A stretch of 61,271 nt of DNA from the NCBI GenBank assembly GCA_035457525.1, contig DATIBN010000268.1, forward strand, positions 1 through 61,271, read 5' to 3'. A program made the position numbers and the translations under genes. This document shows, piece after piece, positions 4,233 through 61,086 of this stretch. This DNA comes from Thermoanaerobaculia bacterium. Lineage in GTDB: Bacteria > Acidobacteriota > Thermoanaerobaculia > UBA5066 > Gp7-AA6. Within the stretch, counting starts at the first letter, position 1; the number at the start of each line of letters is the position of its first letter. The notes beneath the pieces were generated by a model. The model saw only the letters and a program-made list of their open reading frames with translations. It did no database searches and had not been told where the DNA came from.

Positions 4233-4256
4233 GGGGTCAGGCTTTAGCCTGACCCC
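4233..4256. repeat. Minimal palindromic element GGGGTCAGGC-TTTA-GCCTGACCCC, with a second solo CTGACCCCTCTTC arm at 4280-4292
   Basis: Perfect 10-bp inverted repeat read directly. On the - strand it is followed by GCGTCTTTT, so it could act as the dut terminator. Same arms as the elements at 43701 and 50165. Confidence 0.8.
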
Positions 4257-4359
4257 TCTTCATTGGAATCGCCGATTCGCTGACCCCTCTTCGTTGACTT
4301 GGCCGAACCGTTGATCCCCAAAAAATAAATCCGTCCCCCTTTTCTACGCCTTCCGTCGT

Positions 4360-9770: not shown

Positions 9771-9853
9771 CGCGGGGACAGGTCCAGCGGACCTGCACCC
9801 GCCGCAGTTCAAGCGCGGGGACAGGTCCAGCGGACCTGCACCCGCCGCAGTTC
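9771..9853. repeat. Two tandem 40-bp copies of a palindrome-containing repeat (CGCGGGGACAGGTCC-AGC-GGACCTGCACCCGCCGCAGTTC)
   Basis: Identical copies at 9771-9810 and 9814-9853. Each holds the CAGGTCC/GGACCTG hairpin. They fill the convergent gap between the kinase stop (9764) and the M16 peptidase stop (9857). Confidence 0.9.
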
Positions 9854-15092: not shown

Positions 15093-15116
15093 CGCGATAC
15101 GGACCTTTCTTCTTTT

Positions 15117-15234
15117 GGGGTCAGGTCTCCACTTGCCACATTGGGGGTCCGGTCTCCACTTGCCACTTGCTTCGCAAGATGGCAAGACCACTGCCCCCGA
15201 TCGGGCGATCTGCGACTCGTGAAGACCTGACCCC
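15117..15234. repeat. 118-bp element bounded by GGGGTCAGGTCT...AGACCTGACCCC (subfamily B)
   Basis: Terminal inverted repeats read directly. There is an internal direct duplication of GGTCTCCACTTGCCAC. The element ends at the base before the stop codon (15235-15237) of the PilP-like gene. Confidence 0.85.
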
Positions 15235-30633: not shown

Positions 30634-30725
30634 GGGGTCAGGTCTTCACTGATCGCCGAACCGCGGAACAGGGACAAAAGGCCTTGCCACATTGCGAAGC
30701 GATGTGGCAAGTGGAGACCTGACCC
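30634..30725. repeat. 92-bp subfamily B element (GGGGTCAGGTCTTCAC...GTGGCAAGTGGAGACCTGACCCC), inverted relative to the 15117 copy
   Basis: Begins 1 nt after the waaC stop. Its right end is the reverse complement of the left end of the 15117 element, and vice versa. Confidence 0.85.
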
Positions 30726-30769
30726 CATCATGGGAACGAATTGCTGACATCTCTCGTTCTGCTGCGCGC

Positions 30770-39072: not shown

Positions 39073-39564
39073 GTGTCGGGTGTCCGGGGTCGGGGGTCGG
39101 ACTGGGCCGCCCTGATCCCGTTCCTGCTGGTCTCCGCCTGTGGAGGCGCGGCCAAGAGCTCACCCTCGCCGACCCCGGCGGCAGCGATCACGGGACCGAG
39201 AGTCGTCCTGCCTTCCGGCGCCGTCTACAAGGTCGAGATCGCTCGAACGCCCGAGGAGCAGACGCAGGGCCTCATGTTCCGCGAGAGCCTGCCGGACCGC
39301 ACCGGGATGCTCTTTCTCTTCACGGACGCGGCCCCGCACCGTTTCTGGATGAAGAACACGATGATCCCGCTCGACATGATCTGGATGGACGGCGACGGAC
39401 GCGTGCTCTTCGTTTCGGCGAACACGCCCCCCTGCAAGGCCGATCCCTGTCCCAACTACGGGCCCGACGTCCCTGCGGCGAGCGTGCTCGAGATCGCGGG
39501 AGGCCTGGCGGCGAAGGAGAAGGTGACCGTCGGATCCACGATCCGGTTCGAAGAGGTGAAGTGA
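39073..39564 (+). CDS. DUF192 domain-containing lipoprotein
   Basis: Lipobox LLVSAC. GLMFRESLPDRTGMLFLF...RFWMKNTMIPLDMIWMD is the DUF192 core. GTG start 4 nt after the pilR stop. Confidence 0.7.
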   Translation: MSGVRGRGSDWAALIPFLLVSACGGAAKSSPSPTPAAAITGPRVVLPSGAVYKVEIARTPEEQTQGLMFRESLPDRTGMLFLFTDAAPHRFWMKNTMIPLDMIWMDGDGRVLFVSANTPPCKADPCPNYGPDVPAASVLEIAGGLAAKEKVTVGSTIRFEEVK

Positions 39565-40094
39565 TGCAGATGCTGACATTCGAGGGTGATCGGCGCGAGT
39601 TCCGTTCTCCGCCGATCTGTTGCTGCTGCTCGACGACCGTGGATCTGGCGAGCCCCCGGGAGAGCCACACGATCGAGGTCGGTACGCCCCTCGGCGAGGC
39701 GGACGCTCGCGAGCCGATCGTCGTCGCAGCCTGCGAGCCATGTCAGCACCACTGGACCGAAACCTCGAAGGGAACGAAGGTCGGTGCCGCGCTCGTCGGA
39801 TTGAGTGTGCTGATCGTCGCGATTGCGTTCTGGAAGGGCAGACTCACTTTGCTCGTCGGATGTCTGACGCTCATAGTCATGGTCGTCGTCACCGGGCTTC
39901 TCACGCAGTTCGTCTTCCGAACGAAGCTCGATCCCGCCTGCCACAGCGGGCCGAACGGGCCCATCGAGGCGAAGCAGACAGGCGAGGGAAAGCTCGAGCT
40001 CCGCTTCTGGAATCCCCGGTTCGCCGGCGAATTCGGAAGGCTGAACGGAGCGTCCGAAGACGACCTGAAGAAAATTACCGAAGTCGAGAGCTGA
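39561..40094 (+). CDS. Hypothetical Cys-rich membrane protein
   Basis: 177-aa ORF (GTG 39561 or ATG 39564, overlapping the DUF192 stop). N-terminal PPICCCCS...ACEPCQHHW, two TM helices, and a charged C-terminus. I recognise no family. Confidence 0.5.
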   Translation: MMQMLTFEGDRREFRSPPICCCCSTTVDLASPRESHTIEVGTPLGEADAREPIVVAACEPCQHHWTETSKGTKVGAALVGLSVLIVAIAFWKGRLTLLVGCLTLIVMVVVTGLLTQFVFRTKLDPACHSGPNGPIEAKQTGEGKLELRFWNPRFAGEFGRLNGASEDDLKKITEVES

Positions 40095-40101
40095 CGAGTT
40101 C

Positions 40102-41874
40102 TTACGGTTCGAACAGAAACAGCCCGTCGCCCGCGGTGCCCACGTAGAGCCGCCCTTCGGGGGTGGCGAACGTCGAGGCGATCGAGAGACCGGGCCGGGG
40201 ACTCTTGACGGCGCGGCGGCGGCCGGAGACTTCCTCCCACACGAGGTTGCCGTCGACCTCCCGCACGGGCGTGCGCACCGGTGCGGGCTGGACGTCGCCG
40301 CGGTAGTTGTCGAGAAAGCGCCCTCCGGCGAGGAGCGTCCGGCGGCGCGTGTCCCACGCGGTGCCGTCCCACCGGAACGAGCCGCCGGCCGTGCGCACCT
40401 CGAGGATGGGGGCTCCGCCTCCGTCGGCGAGCAGTTCGGCGGCGGACGGCGCCTCGGGGCTGCCGGCGATCGGGACGAAGCTCCGTCCGTCCGGCGTCCG
40501 GAAGACCCCGGCCGTGGTCACGAGTATGGGCGAGCCGAATTCCTTCCCGTAGAGGGCGAGCGGCGTCCCGGGAGGCGGGTTGCCCGGGATCGACCAGCGC
40601 TGCCCCCCGTCGAGCGAGACGCGCAGGCCGTTGAAGCTCGAGAGCAGGAGGACCGTCGCACCCTCCGGGTCCAGGAAGGCGACGAGCGACGCCGAGGGTG
40701 GCAGCGGGTCGAGCGACAGCCGCCGCACGCGCATGCCCCTCGCCTCCCACACACCGCTCTCTCCTCCGGCGTAGGCGCGGAAGAAGAAGAGGCGCTCCGG
40801 GTCCTTCGGGTCGGCGACGAGGTCCGAAACCCTTCCCTCGGCGAGACCCACCGAGCCGGCCGCGAGTGAGGCGCCCCCGTCGTCCGAGTAGAAGACGCCT
40901 TCCCCCTCCGTTCCGACGTAGAGGCGGCCGGTGCGCCCGTCGACGTCGAGAGCGGTCACGACGAGCGTCTCGCGGGAGATCCGCGACCACGATTCGCCGC
41001 CGTCGGTCGAGCGGTGCAGGCCTCCGACCGTCCCGGCGTAGATCACGCCCGGACGCTTCGGATCGCGCCGCACGTTGTGCGAGCGGCGGTTCGTGAACCC
41101 GGTCTTGACGCGGGTCCACCGGTTGCCGCCATCCTTCGTCCGGTAGACCCAGCCGCACGTGGATACCCAGATGTCTTTCGGATCCGCCGGCGCGAAGTCC
41201 CACGAATACACGGATGCGTCCAGGACCATGCCTTCGGCGATGCGGTTCCACGTGCGGCCGCCGTCCGTCGTCCGGAAGGCCTGCCGCCACGTTCCCGCGT
41301 AGAGCGTGCCCGGATCGTCCGGAGCGAACGCGAGCGACTCGACCTGGTAGAGGCCGGGAACCATGTCGCCCGTCAGAGTCCACGTGTCGCCGCCGTCCTT
41401 CGAGAGCCGCACGCCGTCGTCGCCGCCGACGGCGAGAAGAGGCGGCCTTCCCGGTTCGCCCGGCGCGAGGGCGAGCGCGCGCGTCGCAACCGATGTCCTC
41501 CATCGCGCGAGCACGGTCCAGGTCGCGCCGGTGTCTTCGCTCATGACGACGAGGCCCCCCTGGTACTGCCCGGCGAGCGAAGCCCAGAGCCGGCCGGGGC
41601 GGCTCGGGTCGGCGATCAGCCCCGTCGCGATGTAGCCGGGGAACGCGGCTCCCTGGCGCAGCGGGTTCCACGTCGCCCCGCCGTCGGTCGAGCCGTAGAA
41701 GTTCCCGCGCGACGTGCCGCAGTAGAGGCGGTTGGCCTCGAACGGGTCGACCGCGAAGACCTTCACCTCCGCGCCCCACAGCGGCAGCCGCCACCAGTTC
41801 GCGGCCTGTCCGCGCCCGGCGCAGAGCGCCAGGGCGAGGACGGTGAGTGCAATCCGAGCGGTCGGCCGGTTCAT
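40102..41874 (-). CDS. Secreted BNR/Asp-box repeat beta-propeller protein
   Basis: Signal peptide, then repeated S-x-D-x-G-x-T-W boxes: STDGGATW, SEDTGATW, SKDGGDTW, TTDGGRTW, TKDGGNRW, STDGGESW, SLDGGQRW. Confidence 0.8.
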   Translation of the reverse strand: MNRPTARIALTVLALALCAGRGQAANWWRLPLWGAEVKVFAVDPFEANRLYCGTSRGNFYGSTDGGATWNPLRQGAAFPGYIATGLIADPSRPGRLWASLAGQYQGGLVVMSEDTGATWTVLARWRTSVATRALALAPGEPGRPPLLAVGGDDGVRLSKDGGDTWTLTGDMVPGLYQVESLAFAPDDPGTLYAGTWRQAFRTTDGGRTWNRIAEGMVLDASVYSWDFAPADPKDIWVSTCGWVYRTKDGGNRWTRVKTGFTNRRSHNVRRDPKRPGVIYAGTVGGLHRSTDGGESWSRISRETLVVTALDVDGRTGRLYVGTEGEGVFYSDDGGASLAAGSVGLAEGRVSDLVADPKDPERLFFFRAYAGGESGVWEARGMRVRRLSLDPLPPSASLVAFLDPEGATVLLLSSFNGLRVSLDGGQRWSIPGNPPPGTPLALYGKEFGSPILVTTAGVFRTPDGRSFVPIAGSPEAPSAAELLADGGGAPILEVRTAGGSFRWDGTAWDTRRRTLLAGGRFLDNYRGDVQPAPVRTPVREVDGNLVWEEVSGRRRAVKSPRPGLSIASTFATPEGRLYVGTAGDGLFLFEP

Positions 41875-42815: not shown

Positions 42816-43685
42816 ATGCCGAGCGTCAAGGTAGCGGTCTTCCCGGCGGCCGGGCTGGGGACCCGATTCCTCCCCGCCACCAAGGCGCAGCCCAAGGAGA
42901 TGCTTCCTTTAGTCGACCGCCCCCTCGTTCAGTACGTCGTCGAGGAAGCGAAAGCTGCCGGGATCGAGCGCATCGTGATCGTGACGGGGCGCGGGAAAAA
43001 CGCGATCGAGGACCACTTCGACACGTCGTTCGAGCTCGAGAAGCTGCTCGAGGACCGCGGCAAGGAGGACCTGCTCGCCATCGTGCGCGAGATCTCCGAC
43101 ATGATCCCGCTCGCCTATGTCCGCCAGAAACAGGCGCTCGGCCTCGGGCACGCGATCCTCCAGGCGAAGGACCTCGTGGGTAACCAGCCGTTCGCCGTCA
43201 TGCTCGGCGACGACATCGTGGACTCCGTCGAGCCCTGCATCGGGCAGATGATGCGGCTCTTCGAGGAGCGCGGAAACCCCGTGATCGCCGTACAGGAGGT
43301 CCCGCGCGAGGAGACCCGCCAGTACGGCATCGTCGCGGGGGTCAAGGAAAACGAGCGCGTCGTCCGGATTTCCGGAATGGTCGAAAAGCCGTCGCCCGAA
43401 AAGGCGCCCTCGAACCTCGCCATCATCGGGCGGTACATCCTTCCCCCCGAGATCTTCGAGATCCTGGAGGAGACGCGATCCGACGCCGGCGGCGAGATCC
43501 AGCTCACCTCGGGGCTGGCGACGCTCCTCGACCGCCGTCCCATCGACGGCTACCTCTTCGAGGGCACGCGCTACGACGCCGGCGACAAGCTCGGGTTCCT
43601 GAAGGCGACGGTCGAGTTCGCGTTGAAGAGGAAGGACCTGGGTGAGCCGTTCCGGGAGTACCTGAAGACCTTGAAGCTCGACTAG
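42816..43685 (+). CDS. galU: UTP--glucose-1-phosphate uridylyltransferase
   Basis: VFPAAGLGTRFLPATKAQPKEMLPLVDRPLVQYVVEE..., the canonical GalU N-terminus. 289 aa. Confidence 0.92.
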   Translation: MPSVKVAVFPAAGLGTRFLPATKAQPKEMLPLVDRPLVQYVVEEAKAAGIERIVIVTGRGKNAIEDHFDTSFELEKLLEDRGKEDLLAIVREISDMIPLAYVRQKQALGLGHAILQAKDLVGNQPFAVMLGDDIVDSVEPCIGQMMRLFEERGNPVIAVQEVPREETRQYGIVAGVKENERVVRISGMVEKPSPEKAPSNLAIIGRYILPPEIFEILEETRSDAGGEIQLTSGLATLLDRRPIDGYLFEGTRYDAGDKLGFLKATVEFALKRKDLGEPFREYLKTLKLD

Positions 43686-43700
43686 ATCCTGGGGGATCCT

Positions 43701-43771
43701 GGGGTCAGGCAGGCATTTTGGTGTTTCGGTCGCGGATGGGGCATCTAAAGCCAAACCCCACGCCTGACCCC
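43701..43771. repeat. 71-bp subfamily A element GGGGTCAGGC...GCCTGACCCC
   Basis: 10-bp perfect terminal inverted repeats. The interior GCATTTTGGTGTT resembles the 50165 copy. It is preceded by a tandem GATCCTGGGG GATCCTGGGG. Confidence 0.85.
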
Positions 43772-43775
43772 AGTC

Positions 43776-43817
43776 AGCCGTATCCGGGAGTACCTGAAGA
43801 CCTTGAAGCTCGACTAG
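43776..43817 (+). repeat. Relic duplicate of the last ~41 nt of galU, including its stop codon
   Basis: 43783-43817 is identical to 43651-43685 (35/35). The match extends to AGCCGT with one extra base. Its CTAG also supplies the stop of the convergent zinc-ribbon gene. Confidence 0.9.
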
Positions 43818-44128
43818 TCTCTGGACTTCGGCTTTTTCGGTTTCTCCGGCTTCTCTTTCTTCTCGCTCTTGTCAGCGCTCGAGTCCTTCGACTCTCCCGA
43901 TCCTTCCTTCGTGTCGGCGGCCGCTTCCTTCTTCTTCTGCTCCCCTTTCGACCCGGCGTAGTCGGTCACGTACCAGCCCGAGCCCTTGAACTGGATCGCG
44001 GGCACCGAGAACGCCTTCTTCAGCTTGCCGCCGCAATGCGGACAGATCTTCAGCGGCTTCTCGCCGACCCGTTGGATCGCTTCGGTCCGGCGGCCGCACG
44101 CCTCGCAGTCGTATTCGTAAATCGGCAT
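43814..44128 (-). CDS. FmdB-family zinc-ribbon protein with a Lys/Glu-rich tail
   Basis: MPIYEYDCEACG...CPHCGG, followed by a low-complexity K/E/S tail. 104 aa. Confidence 0.8.
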   Translation of the reverse strand: MPIYEYDCEACGRRTEAIQRVGEKPLKICPHCGGKLKKAFSVPAIQFKGSGWYVTDYAGSKGEQKKKEAAADTKEGSGESKDSSADKSEKKEKPEKPKKPKSRD

Positions 44129-44167
44129 CGGGAATTCTCGGCGTTCGGAGTCTCGAACCGCGCCCGC

Positions 44168-44932
44168 TCAGCCGCCGAGGGATCCGCCCTCCGTCTTCCA
44201 TTGTATTTTCCGCCCGCCGGGAGCCTCTTTCACCCGCACGAGGTCGAGACAGAAGAAGGCGTAGAGAAGTCGCGCGTTCTCCGCGACGCTTCCGGGCCCG
44301 CGCTGACAGAGGATCTGGACGGGCGTGCGCCCGTCCACGAGGCCGCGCAGGGAGATCTCCTCGGGCGTGAAGACGCCCGGCGCGAGCGCCGCCTCCGCCT
44401 GCTCGAGTACGGCATGGCCGGAGCCCAGCCGGTCGACGAACCGCCGCACGTTCGCGGCTCGCCGTATGCCCTCCACGATGACCCGGGTGATCGAGAGGTC
44501 GATGCGCACGGTCTCGCCCTCACGCGCGCCGCCCACCTCGAACACCACCTCCCCGTCGTCCCAGTCGAACGCGCCCCAGAGGATCTCGCGCACCTGGTCC
44601 GCGACGGCGGCCTCGAGCGTGGCCGAATCGAGGAGCTCGAGCCGCAGGAGGACCTGGCCCAGACGGATCCCGTCCCCGGCGAGCCGGGATTCGGCGCTGT
44701 GGACGGCGTCCTCGGGCAGAGTGCCGTGCCGGATGAGGTAATTGCCGAGACGGACCTCGCGCTCGTTGGAGGTCGCGAAGATCACGAGGCCGTTGTCCAG
44801 GTAGATCCGCCGATGCGCGTCGCCGCGCTTCACCGAGAGCGCTCCGGGAACGCGGTAGCGCTCGATCGTGGCGAGGATCTCGGGCAGTGGAGTGACCGCG
44901 AGATCTCCGCGGTACTCGAACTTCTTTTCCAT
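44168..44932 (-). CDS. DUF4388 domain-containing protein
   Basis: N-terminal GDLAVTPLPEILATIERYRVPGALSVKRG fits the DUF4388 (PatA-N-like) pattern. 254 aa. Confidence 0.6.
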   Translation of the reverse strand: MEKKFEYRGDLAVTPLPEILATIERYRVPGALSVKRGDAHRRIYLDNGLVIFATSNEREVRLGNYLIRHGTLPEDAVHSAESRLAGDGIRLGQVLLRLELLDSATLEAAVADQVREILWGAFDWDDGEVVFEVGGAREGETVRIDLSITRVIVEGIRRAANVRRFVDRLGSGHAVLEQAEAALAPGVFTPEEISLRGLVDGRTPVQILCQRGPGSVAENARLLYAFFCLDLVRVKEAPGGRKIQWKTEGGSLGG

Positions 44933-49012: not shown

Positions 49013-50142
49013 GCGAGGCCTTCGACGCCGTCGTCGTGGGCGCCGGGCCGGCCGGCTCCGCGGCCGCGGCGGTGCTCGCAGAGCGCGGACGCTCCGTCCT
49101 CCTCCTCGAGAAAGACGTCTTCCCGCGCCACAAGGTCTGCGGCGAGTTCCTCTCCGCCGACGCGCTCCCGAGCCTGGATCGGATCGGCGCGCGCCGGGAG
49201 ATCGAAGACGCCACCCCGGAGAGGATGACGCGCGGCGCGTTCCACCTCGCGGGAGGAAGAGTGGTGTCGTTTCCGCTGCCGGCCCCGGCTCTCGGGCTGT
49301 CGCGTCATCGGTTCGACGACCTGCTCGCGCGCCGCGCAAGCGGCGCCGGCGCCGACGTGCGGTTCGCGGCGCGCGTTCTGTCGGTGGAGCCCGCGCCGGA
49401 GAGCGGCTTCCGCGTTCGCTTCCTCCACCGGCAGCGGGAGAGCGAAGCGGTGGCCACGGCCGCGATTGGGGCCTGGGGACGCTGGGACTCGCTCGACCGC
49501 GCACTCGATCGCGGCTTTCTGGGTCGCCGCACCCGCTTCTTCGGCTGGAGCCGGGACTTCCGCGCCGACGGCGGATTCCTCGAGGGAGAGGTACGGCTAT
49601 ACCTCTTTGCCGGCGGCTACTGCGGCCTGTCGCGCGTGGAAGGGGGTGCCGTCAACCTCGCCGGGGTCGTCGCCGAGAAAGTCTGGAAGCGCGCGGGGGC
49701 GGGATGGGATTCCGTCGTGGATGGCGCGAGGCGCGGGAACCCCGCTCTCGACCGCGATCTCGCCCGGTTGACTCCGGGGCCCATCGGCTTTCTCGGGACG
49801 GGCCCGGTTTTCTTCACGAGGAAGCCGCCGGTGGAAAACGGCCTCCTCATGGCCGGCGACGCGGCGGGAGTCATCGATCCCTTCTCGGGCGAAGGCCAGG
49901 CCGCGGCGCTCGCGAGCGGAATCCTCGCGGCAGACACGGCCGAGCGTCTCCTCGCGGGAGAGCTCTCGCGTGCGGGTGCCGCGCAGACCTATGCCACGGA
50001 GTGGCGGAGGAGATTCGCGCGACGTTTCGCGTGGAGCGCCGTCTTCCGGCGCCTCGTGCTGAACGAGACGATCGGTGCGCTGGCCGGCCGGCTGGCGGGA
50101 GAGAGGCTGGTCCGGTTCGGCATCTCCGCCACGCGACGCTAG
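49009..50142 (+). CDS. FAD-dependent oxidoreductase (geranylgeranyl reductase / flavin monooxygenase-halogenase superfamily)
   Basis: TTG at 49009 (TTGA overlap). Dinucleotide fold DAVVVGAGPAGSAAAAVLAERG and a later GDAAG motif. Confidence 0.75.
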   Translation: MSEAFDAVVVGAGPAGSAAAAVLAERGRSVLLLEKDVFPRHKVCGEFLSADALPSLDRIGARREIEDATPERMTRGAFHLAGGRVVSFPLPAPALGLSRHRFDDLLARRASGAGADVRFAARVLSVEPAPESGFRVRFLHRQRESEAVATAAIGAWGRWDSLDRALDRGFLGRRTRFFGWSRDFRADGGFLEGEVRLYLFAGGYCGLSRVEGGAVNLAGVVAEKVWKRAGAGWDSVVDGARRGNPALDRDLARLTPGPIGFLGTGPVFFTRKPPVENGLLMAGDAAGVIDPFSGEGQAAALASGILAADTAERLLAGELSRAGAAQTYATEWRRRFARRFAWSAVFRRLVLNETIGALAGRLAGERLVRFGISATRR

Positions 50143-50164
50143 TCGTGGCTGAGGACGGGTAGCC

Positions 50165-50224
50165 GGGGTCAGGCGTGCAGTTTGGTGTTATTCGGCGACA
50201 ACGCCAAAATACATGCCTGACCCC
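50165..50224. repeat. 60-bp subfamily A element GGGGTCAGGC...GCCTGACCCC
   Basis: Perfect 10-bp arms. The interior TTTGGTGTT...AACGCCAAA pairs with one G-T position, so the whole element is an extended hairpin. Confidence 0.9.
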
Positions 50225-50315
50225 TCGTGCTGAACGAGAGGATCGGGGCGCTGGCCGGCCGGCTGGCGGGAGAGAGGCTGGTCCGGTTCGGCATCTCCGC
50301 CACGCGACGCTAGTC
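50225..50315 (+). repeat. Relic duplicate of the last 91 nt of the oxidoreductase gene, including its stop
   Basis: 50225-50315 against 50054-50144: 89/91 identical by direct reading. Mismatches are at 50240 and 50247. Confidence 0.92.
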
Positions 50316-50320
50316 CTCGC

Positions 50321-51055
50321 CTAAAGCCCCCGGGCCCCCTCCGGCGTGAAGATCCTCGGGTCGATCCGAGCGGTCCGATACTTCCGGTACTCGAGCCGCG
50401 TCACAGCGTTCGACGCCGGGCCGAGGAGGTCTCTCACCTCCATCTCGGCCACGACCGTCCGGCCGTTCAAAGTCTGGAACTTCGTGAAGGTGACGGCACG
50501 TACCTCCTTGCCCGACGCGAGGAAGAACCGCACCCGGCAGGGGACCCTTTCGCGCTCGTCCACCGACAGCAGGATGCGCGGGTAGGAAGATCGCGCGGAC
50601 TTCGCCGTGAGCTCGAGAACGCGGCAGCTGCGATCCGCAACGCTCTCCTTCTCGTCCGCGTCCTTCGCGACGTAGTCCTCCGAGAAGCGAAGGCGGGAGA
50701 CGTCGCCGAACGACGCACCGCCCAGGAGCCGCTGGTTGGCCGTGATCGGCACCGGGTTGGTCGAGCCGGGAACGAGCAGCCACATCTTGTCGCCGTTCGT
50801 GAGCACCTTGCGGCCGCTGTTCTTCCCGCCGCGAAACACGATGAGTCCCCTGTCGCGACCCTTCACGTAGACGTCGAAGTCCGCGGTCCCGGTCTCCTTT
50901 CCGCCGACGATCTGGGTCGCACGCGCGGTGATGACCGCCTCGTCGAACGCGTTGCGCGTCGCGTCCACTGCGGCCAGGAGTCCCTGCAGGTCCTCCGCGG
51001 CGACCGAAGTCGCGAGCGAAAGGAGGATGGCGAGCGCCAAATGCGTTCTTCTCAC
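50321..51055 (-). CDS. LolA-like outer membrane lipoprotein-sorting protein
   Basis: GTG at 51055. Signal peptide VRRTHLALAILLSLATSVAA, then about 220 aa of beta-rich sequence of the LolA-like/DUF4367 type. Adjacent to the FtsX permease and ABC ATPase. Confidence 0.65.
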   Translation of the reverse strand: MRRTHLALAILLSLATSVAAEDLQGLLAAVDATRNAFDEAVITARATQIVGGKETGTADFDVYVKGRDRGLIVFRGGKNSGRKVLTNGDKMWLLVPGSTNPVPITANQRLLGGASFGDVSRLRFSEDYVAKDADEKESVADRSCRVLELTAKSARSSYPRILLSVDERERVPCRVRFFLASGKEVRAVTFTKFQTLNGRTVVAEMEVRDLLGPASNAVTRLEYRKYRTARIDPRIFTPEGARGL

Positions 51056-55380: not shown

Positions 55381-55478
55381 TGGCGGAAGCGCATGGGAAT
55401 CGAACCCACCCATCCCGGCGAAGCCGGGATGCCAACGGATTTGAAGTCCGCGAGAGCCACCAGGCCCCGGGCGCTTCC
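55381..55478 (-). tRNA. selC: tRNA-Sec (anticodon UCA)
   Basis: The reverse complement reads GGAAGCGC CC GGGGCC TGGT GGCTCT C GCGGA CTTCAAA TCCGT T GGCATCCCGGCTTCGCCGGGATG GGTGGGTTCGATTCCCAT GCGCTTCC G CCA. It has an 8-bp acceptor stem, a 6-bp D stem, a UCA anticodon and a long variable arm, the same layout as E. coli selC. Confidence 0.9.
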
Positions 55479-61010: not shown

Positions 61011-61086
61011 GGGGCTGTAGCTCAGTTGGGAGAGCGCCTGAATGGCATTCAGGAGGTCGACGGTTCGATCCCGTTCGGCTCCACCA
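61011..61086 (+). tRNA. tRNA-Ala (anticodon GGC), CCA encoded
   Basis: GGGGCTGTAGCTCAGTTGGGAGAGCGCCTGAATGGCATTCAGGAGGTCGACGGTTCGATCCCGTTCGGCTCCACCA. Cloverleaf with a G3:U70 pair and GGC in the anticodon loop. Confidence 0.92.

Follow-up and report, generated by a model that had tools for sequence, protein, structure and literature searches.

Does a small mobile hairpin duplicate the end of a gene when it inserts? The question is raised by a contig of a Thermoanaerobaculia bacterium (Acidobacteriota), 61,271 nt long and referred to here over its whole length as the window. At the junction between galU and a convergent zinc-ribbon gene (locus 1), a 71-bp hairpin, E1, is flanked by two copies of the galU 3' end, and 6.5 kb away on the same contig (locus 2) a second hairpin, E2, lies between two copies of another gene's 3' end. 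A first-pass annotation of the window concluded that the element makes such long duplications of gene 3' ends. Comparison with orthologous loci and with other hairpins of the family shows that the duplication is instead a real, rare, strain-specific scar, and not the normal insertion mode of the family. We regard the feature as a structural variant, peculiar to the strain, at a polymorphic site resembling those of repetitive extragenic palindromic (REP) sequences, and not as evidence for duplication-making transposition. Locus 1 is composed as follows.

42816-43685, plus strand: galU (UTP-glucose-1-phosphate uridylyltransferase), an intact open reading frame (ORF) with its own TAG; 100% identical homologues carry PF00483.
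43642-43692, plus strand: left, functional copy of the duplicated target, with an exact core at 43645-43685.
43685-43704, plus strand: 10-nt tandem, two units of GATCCTGGGG, at the left junction.
43701-43771, no strand assigned: hairpin E1, GGGGTCAGGC...GCCTGACCCC, 71 bp, the inverted repeat extending to 43699-43773.
43772-43777, plus strand: AGTCAG, the same as the right flank of occupied alleles in relatives.
43773-43824, plus strand: right, relic copy of the galU tail, with its core at 43776-43817.
43814-44128, minus strand: FmdB-type zinc-ribbon gene, 104 aa, PF09723, the same short allele as in empty-site relatives.

The galU gene ends in CTCGACTAG (within the longer stretch ...GAGCCGTTCCGGGAGTACCTGAAGACCTTGAAGCTCGACTAG), and its last 35 nt (43651-43685) recur exactly at 43783-43817. 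If one inserted A is allowed (CCGT-TCC versus CCGTATCC), the repeat grows to 41 nt, starting at 43645 and 43776, respectively; these coordinates, and those of the 71-bp element between the copies, agree in full with the first-pass annotation. BLAST against the empty allele gives a duplicated target of 51 nt with imperfect ends. The final 7 nt of the left copy, ATCCTGG, have three mismatches to the empty-site TCTCTGG, and a single extra A in the relic copy breaks the galU frame. Wherever the two copies differ, the position is no more than 7 nt from a boundary, beside E1.

Downstream of the galU stop the order is ATCCTGGGGGATCCT, E1, AGTCAG and then the second tail copy, CCGTATCCGGGAGTACCTGAAGACCTTGAAGCTCGACTAG. 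The G of the galU TAG and ATCCTGGGGGATCCT together make up GATCCTGGGG GATCCTGGGG, the 10-bp tandem already recognized at the left junction, whose second unit enters E1; it is an instance of a family-wide end 'stutter' (described below). The arms of E1 are 23 nt long and 78% complementary, with a predicted fold of -39.9 kcal/mol, and its internal sequence was seen solely at the galU/zinc-ribbon junction among the matches listed. The zinc-ribbon gene stops at the complement of CTA 43814-43816, within the CTAG of the downstream tail copy, which is therefore the real stop, as had been proposed. Both ORFs are unbroken in the window, so the two reading frames were indeed preserved.

Locus 2 is laid out in a similar way.

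50052-50149, plus strand: left copy, the last 91 nt of a gene for a flavin adenine dinucleotide (FAD)-dependent oxidoreductase (stop 50140-50142) and a further 7 nt.
50165-50224, no strand assigned: hairpin E2, 60 bp, a member of a multi-copy subfamily; fold -39.3 kcal/mol (z = -4.4).
50223-50320, plus strand: right, relic copy, 98 nt, 96% identical to the left copy.
50321-51055, minus strand: convergent gene for a TP_0789-like (LolA-like) lipoprotein, stop 50321-50323.

The copies differ at positions 17, 24, 93 and 95 of the 98. The relic and the adjoining CTA stop read TAG TCCTCGC CTA, exactly as in the empty allele of contig L132. Local alignment of one flank to the other scores 80 at locus 1 and 172 at locus 2, compared with at most 31 for shuffled flanks, and because these scores so far exceed those of shuffled flanks, a chance origin of both duplications is excluded. 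The argument that two such loci are not due to chance is upheld to that extent, but a duplicating mechanism inherent in the element family is not supported. The hairpin, the convergent genes and the 98-nt duplication at the second locus are real, but the stops there were 7 nt apart before the insertion and did not overlap.

Homologues of galU assign the contig to the Thermoanaerobaculia. The galU/zinc-ribbon junction was gathered from about 40 assemblies, by way of contigs encoding near-identical GalU or zinc-ribbon proteins, and occurs in four states. In state (a) it is empty, the stops overlap by CTAG and the zinc-ribbon gene encodes 104 aa, the sequence being ...GGTGAGCCGTTCC...CTCGACTAG followed by TCTCTGGACTT. 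This state is found in the nearest relatives of the window (L276-L279, 97.4-98.5% identity) and in L141-L145 (95-97%), four and five contigs, respectively, that read ...CTCGACTAG and then TCTCTGG with no element; L148-L155 (about 80%) have it too, with another sequence. State (b), in L132 (92%), is empty with a 6-nt spacer. State (c) carries E1 with a single gene tail, in the order CTAG-TTCAAGGTTCGAGTGATCTT-E1-AGTCAG-TCTTTC..., where TCA corresponds to the TGA stop of a 110-aa zinc-ribbon gene (L122-L129, L139-L140, L182 and L259, 96%; L147, 90%). State (d), the hairpin with a duplication, is represented by the window alone. At locus 2, L132 is likewise empty (TAG-TCCTCGC-CTA), and L126 and L211 bear the orthologous E2 with a single tail.

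Compared with the nearest empty allele, the window consists of that allele, 80 nt of new DNA and the 51-nt imperfect target duplication (exact core 6 + 35 nt). Since the empty junction of the nearest relatives overlaps at CTAG, as it also does in L141-L145, the earlier proposal that galU and the zinc-ribbon gene originally shared overlapping stop codons holds. The 104-aa and 110-aa zinc-ribbon alleles differ by an 18-nt in-frame indel between GTCTTT repeats (window 43818-43840 versus L126 10964-11000), and the lysine-rich tail concerned is locally the fastest-evolving stretch, with 88.8% identity versus about 97% around it. The zinc-ribbon protein of the window matched no other record exactly; its closest variants, P0005 and P0249, come from empty alleles.

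Among strains that share one GalU protein sequence (P0024), the hairpin at this junction is of two kinds, which differ in loop and spacer (L133 and L137 versus L134-L136 and L138). The junction is therefore a hot spot with turnover, and the sequences indicate that its hairpin is either rapidly replaced or repeatedly inserted. The GalU variants P0005-P0022, which are 96-99% identical over the body of the protein, differ in the C-terminal ~13 residues (window 43645-43685), ending for example in ...EYLKTLKLD, ...EYLKGLRLD, ...RYLKELKLDE, ...DYLRGLKI or ...QYLKGLKLGEI. Such variety suggests recombination breakpoints or tail replacement at the galU junction. Further upstream, a 548-nt segment (39555-40102) with a 176-aa ORF lacking a Pfam hit is present in the window, L126 and L132; in its place L141 has about 113 nt, and L276 and L277 have about 50 nt.

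Whether the hairpins duplicate gene ends elsewhere was judged from two collections. A cross-phylum scan for GGGGTCAGGY-N40-70-RCCTGACCCC, with one genome per species, gave at least 120 loci, and a stricter pattern for the hairpin subfamily of the window gave at least 120 copies in metagenome contigs (L156-L275). The latter yielded 100 non-redundant elements, and 116 copies had flanks adequate for the flank-repeat test. Long direct repeats flank none of these 116 copies, none of the 100 non-redundant elements among the matches listed, and none in the cross-phylum sample. The one high flank score among the metagenome matches listed, L252 (3771-4265), is a 266-nt tandem duplication (~87% identical) whose unit contains one complete hairpin and 158 nt of flank, and what look like flanking repeats in L012 and L121 belong to longer repeated elements and do not represent gene tails. 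In addition, the orthologous hairpins in L122-L129, L139-L140, L147 and L211 stand without a duplication. The proposal that the element makes long duplications of gene 3' ends is thus contradicted, with the duplications absent at the other copies of a surrogate census that comprises metagenome contigs and the cross-phylum sample, not the source genome itself.

Ordinary target-site duplication is also lacking: none of 3 nt or more was found above chance in the 100 non-redundant metagenome elements listed, and a family-wide duplication of this kind can be ruled out for that set. A slight excess at 2 nt reflects a palindromic AT at the boundary, the palindrome sometimes reaching outward. In the same 100 elements conservation stops at the outer GGGG (at most 0.17 bits outside it), and the arms are conserved over ~25 nt. 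The subfamily copies are 57-86 bp long and lie in contigs with a median of 66% G+C. A stop-codon triplet occurs within 12 nt outside the element at 48% of ends, versus 20% at controls 40 nt further out (metagenome matches listed). From these boundary, repeat and stop-codon results it follows that the element is a REP-like or MITE-like (miniature inverted-repeat transposable element) extragenic hairpin of a very widespread family, situated close to stop codons and normally without target duplication.

The breadth of the family is seen in the matches listed from Gemmatimonadota, Oxalobacteraceae, Planctomycetota, Desulfobacterota, Acidobacteriota, Actinomycetota, Nitrospirota, Chlamydiota, Bacillota and others; the carriers include complete chromosomes of Massilia, Duganella and Dokdonella. 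In the cross-phylum matches listed the stem base GGGGTCAGGY/RCCTGACCCC is invariant and the interior variable. These matches are not due to chance, because complementarity of the arms continues past the searched bases, 99 of the 126 matches listed having 9 or more complementary bases among the next 12 positions of the arm. The window itself is densely populated, with five full elements and hairpin variants in 61 kb, the arms being 23-25 nt long. Besides E1 and E2 it holds the following.

4233-4256, no strand assigned: minimal 24-bp GGGGTCAGGC/GCCTGACCCC hairpin, with no long flanking repeat.
15117-15234, no strand assigned: 118-bp GGGGTCAGGT-type member; left arm (27 nt) duplicated, long flank repeat lacking.
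30634-30726, no strand assigned: 93-bp GGGGTCAGGT-type member lacking a flank repeat.

The 'stutter' mentioned above is found in both censuses, at about 10-12% of element ends. In it a short sequence x is followed by GGGGTCA, then by x again and by the element proper (x-GGGGTCA-x-GGGGTCAGG...), with a period of 13-20 nt. The six bases preceding each unit are often identical, and L219 has three units; the stutters may stem from slippage at the base of the hairpin or be the footprint of nicking. Examples are L005 6697, L022 206, L025 2928, L038 3162, L093 2405, L102 2930, L219 1436 and L211 2045 and, in the window, 43685-43704, 4249-4310 and 15105-15158. The second of these belongs to the minimal hairpin at 4233, whose right end and flank are in tandem (4249-4279 and 4280-4310, 77% identical). 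A separate repeat in the window, at 9771-9853, consists of a perfect 40-nt unit, CGCGGGGACAGGTCCAGCGGACCTGCACCCGCCGCAGTTC, present twice 43 nt apart between convergent genes (stops 9764 and 9857); the unit contains a degenerate hairpin, GGGGaCAGG...CCTGcaCCC.

A known RNA or an intrinsic terminator was considered and ruled out by the lack of an Rfam match and of a U tract. Rfam covariance models at the gathering score did not match the hairpins, no Rho-independent terminator was found in 43300-44300, and no U tract or T run follows either hairpin arm. The only Rfam matches in the window were a tRNA-Sec gene (73.9 bits; 55385-55478, minus strand) and one ordinary tRNA gene (61011-61083, plus strand); the organism probably uses selenocysteine.

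The element comes closest to REPs and their paired, hairpin-forming relatives (REPINs), which it resembles in its anatomy, its location and its lack of target duplication. REPs and REPINs are mobilised by a REP-associated tyrosine transposase (RAYT, a Y1 transposase), typically encoded in the same genome by a single-copy gene that is usually flanked by REPs. Shared features are the short, imperfect extragenic palindromes (57-86 bp here) with two ~25-nt inverted arms and a variable loop, the many diverged copies at gene 3' ends and convergent junctions, and insertion without target duplication, REPINs being described here in part after PMC3116915 and PMC3337134. The family of the window differs in having no GTAG-type tetranucleotide outside the hairpin, every outside position being as poor in information as stated above. 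It also differs in that the GGGGTCAGG stem base is conserved across many phyla, where REP sequences are usually lineage-specific. A REP-type GTAG signal, as in RAYT recognition, was a candidate, since GTA(A/G) lies beside elements in 25/196 cases versus 5/196 (metagenome matches listed); it was rejected, as a parallel enrichment of stop codons (94/196 versus 39/196) explains the apparent excess. No RAYT gene was identified in the 61-kb window and the 8-20-kb loci, for which no PF01797 scan was made. Because the GTAG-type signal was not found and a RAYT was sought only as far as the window allows, the element is not filed as a member of the REP/REPIN class.

Bacterial MITEs, such as the Correia element of Neisseria and those derived from IS630 that target CTAG or TA, share with the hairpins their terminal inverted repeats, small size and insertion at gene ends with stops supplied at the junction, and CTAG is present at several junctions here. 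They differ in that the hairpin family lacks a fixed-length target-site duplication, and no autonomous insertion sequence (IS) with matching ends was seen at the two multi-hit loci inspected, L084 and L003, where nothing transposon-like lies between the paired hits. Members of the IS1634 and IS1202 groups are 1.5-2 kb long, encode a transposase and are generally flanked by variable direct repeats of tens to hundreds of bp. The long direct repeats of the window, with lengths that vary between copies, recall these groups, but the inserts here are 60-71 bp and non-coding, and the repeat is present at 2 copies versus 0 of the 100 others listed. The element does not belong with them, since it has no transposase and its other copies have no such repeats. 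Integrative elements that restore the 3' end of their target gene (att sites in tRNA, tmRNA or protein genes) also leave a gene 3' end on both sides and the gene intact. They require an integrase and a copy of att borne by the element, unlike the 71-bp hairpin, which has no integrase; moreover, the duplicated segment here is the host's own allele and is of unequal length at the two loci.

The duplications also resemble products of homology-facilitated illegitimate recombination (HFIR) and short-patch double illegitimate recombination (SPDIR). In transformable bacteria, these integrate a short heterologous segment beside homologous DNA, with joints at microhomologies of 2-5 nt, and an illegitimate joint placed upstream of where the homology ends can give rise to a duplication. 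Microhomology and clustering of sequence changes at the joints were both found in the window. The differences are that the events here are known from sequence alone and that two of them so close together would be unusual. HFIR is used here in the sense in which it is defined in PMC3240628.

How, then, did the allele of the window arise? Our tentative preference, held at rather less than even confidence, is that an occupied allele was illegitimately joined to an empty one under the guidance of microhomology. It is favoured because the allele combines two lineages, because locus 2 retains an empty-type string, and because the joints show microhomology with the differences between copies clustered near them. 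E1 of the window is 93% identical to E1 of the occupied alleles (L122-L129, L139-L140, L147, L182 and L259) and has the same 6-nt flanks, GATCYT on the left and AGTCAG on the right, despite the absence of family conservation outside GGGG. AGTCAG holds the functional TGA stop of the zinc-ribbon gene in the occupied alleles and has no function in the window. The zinc-ribbon gene of the window is of the 104-aa empty-allele type, not of the 110-aa type linked to E1 elsewhere. With the hairpin of the state (c) lineage and the right-hand DNA of the state (a) lineage, the window therefore joins two allele lineages. At locus 2, TCCTCGC-CTA after the relic is found in the empty L132 and not in the occupied L126; an occupied chromosome alone could not regenerate it, since the occupied allele lacks that string. 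The microhomologies are GT(C/G)AG and TC(T)CTGG at locus 1 and CCTC at locus 2. Phasing of single-nucleotide polymorphisms (SNPs) to the left of the junction shows the window to be a mosaic of L276-like and L126-like states, an indication that lineages recombine frequently.

With anatomy, alleles, census and junction microhomologies as observed, we infer the enzymology and the direction of the event along the following lines. Two kinds of process are candidates: uptake of DNA with subsequent homology-facilitated or double illegitimate recombination, and repair or replication in which the template was switched immediately beyond the hairpin. At locus 1 the strand bearing tail, spacer, E1 and AGTCAG would have been joined at GT(C/G)AG to CCGT, 41 nt before the stop that both genes share in the empty allele, and at locus 2 CCTC would have been joined to GTGCTG, 93 nt before the plus-strand gene's stop. 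The outcome would be a copy of the target on both sides of the hairpin, the left completing the plus-strand gene and the right becoming a decaying relic. The convergent stop would be kept by the relic CTAG at locus 1, and by the intact spacer and CTA after the relic at locus 2. Type IV pilus genes and genes resembling those of type II secretion systems lie upstream in the orthologous loci, and are not evidence of competence.

Several points weigh against such a joining of alleles. Two rare events only 6.5 kb apart, with none seen elsewhere, would need some shared cause, and a donor allele with the exact left spacer of the window, ATCCTGGGG, is absent from the sampled contigs. The lineage-specific SNP beside the left copy (T at 43643) is that of the empty-allele lineage and so lends no support to a long donor tract confined to the left side. 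A long imported tract beside the junctions was in fact rejected on both sides, as the profile of identity between the window and L126 is flat except in the zinc-ribbon tail, and the SNP mosaic has no clean block. Finally, a single insertion that duplicated a 51-nt target would, set against the nearest empty allele, yield formally the same structure.

That last possibility, a primary insertion by a transposase-like activity with cuts staggered by 51 nt (locus 1) and 98 nt (locus 2) and subsequent gap filling, is the strongest rival, although we think it unlikely. It accounts for a window made up of the nearest empty allele, 80 nt of new DNA and a 51-nt duplication, and it would derive the occupied alleles that lack a duplication by later deletion of the relic. 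For locus 2 of L126 this is feasible on paper, the right junction, CCCCTC/AGAGCC, being obtainable by one 95-nt deletion and the left spacer by a 9-nt deletion. An old duplication is also compatible with the data, because the divergence of the copies (0-4%) is not clearly below the neutral divergence of the hairpins between the window and L126 (7-12%), the sites being too few for dating. At locus 1, however, the ancestral 110-aa zinc-ribbon tail, absent from the window, persists in the occupied alleles, which therefore cannot derive from the allele of the window. The GTCAG that is shared, and that provides a functional stop in the occupied alleles only, would have to be a lucky neutral change. 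Nor does the wider family behave as staggered cutting predicts, there being no target-site duplication or remnant of a flank repeat in the 100 subfamily elements listed or the cross-phylum sample. No source copy for transposition is known, E1 being confined to a single locus among the matches listed, and no transposase was identified.

An assembly chimera of co-occurring strains, in which the end of an occupied-allele contig was joined at both junctions to an empty-allele contig starting inside the gene tail, we regard as improbable. Both duplications are peculiar to this contig, with nothing of the kind in about 30 orthologous contigs or at the 100 other elements listed, and their right parts are perfect empty alleles, with left parts that resemble occupied ones. 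The metagenome contigs L001, L130, L131 and L146 are short and end exactly at or within the galU stop codon, as would fit a branch point of the assembly graph. The SNP mosaic left of the junction may equally be a mixed-strain consensus, and the differences between copies fall near the putative joins. On the other hand, De Bruijn assembly needs reads across the hairpin-to-tail junction, and a simple insertion/deletion bubble has no such edge. In a genuine galU allele the extra A of the relic would shift the frame, and it is easier to reconcile with a decaying relic than with the functional tail of a second strain. E1 of the window is moreover a distinct third lineage, about 7% from that of L126 (from 7 up to ~10% when both sampled occupied lineages are considered), and does not copy any sampled allele, and both junctions have the microhomology that joints made in vivo would show.

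A purely intrachromosomal origin, in which replication slipped back past the hairpin to give a tandem of tail, spacer and hairpin that then lost its second hairpin by a hairpin-stimulated deletion, is very improbable. In its favour, tandems containing a hairpin are known in the family (L252, with its 266-nt unit; window 9771-9853, with a 43-nt unit; L172), the stutters on 10-12% of element ends suggest local slippage, and GT(G/C)AG and TC(T)CTGG lie at the required points of locus 1. Against it, both loci would have had to go through two steps, the TCCTCGC-CTA after the locus 2 relic is ancestral empty-type DNA absent from the occupied allele, and the zinc-ribbon allele of locus 1 is of the empty-lineage type.

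A further suggestion, on how the family spreads, is speculative and has only a small chance of being correct. The GGGGTCAGG hairpins might be moved not by a cut-and-paste transposase but by a copy-in process triggered by the hairpin and primed by microhomology, in which synthesis or strand transfer would end just past the hairpin and rejoin at a few matching bases. At roomy sites this would leave no duplication. Where convergent stops are tight or overlapping, only those products that duplicate tens of target bases, and in which both genes keep their ends, would survive, and the stutters would be traces left by that process on a smaller scale.

The two loci also offer a caution, in that a pattern seen twice on one contig failed to generalise in a census of 100 relatives, and the broader hairpin family and its end stutters are a more promising lead than the duplication. 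If the duplications are real, they show that a junction without spare bases, where the stops overlap, can accept a mobile hairpin with neither gene damaged. They would also complete a natural set of alleles (empty, occupied, and occupied with a duplication) for the gain and loss of a REP-like hairpin in uncultured Acidobacteriota. As the family defined by the GGGGTCAGG stem base spans many phyla, the protein or process that recognises it would be broadly distributed.

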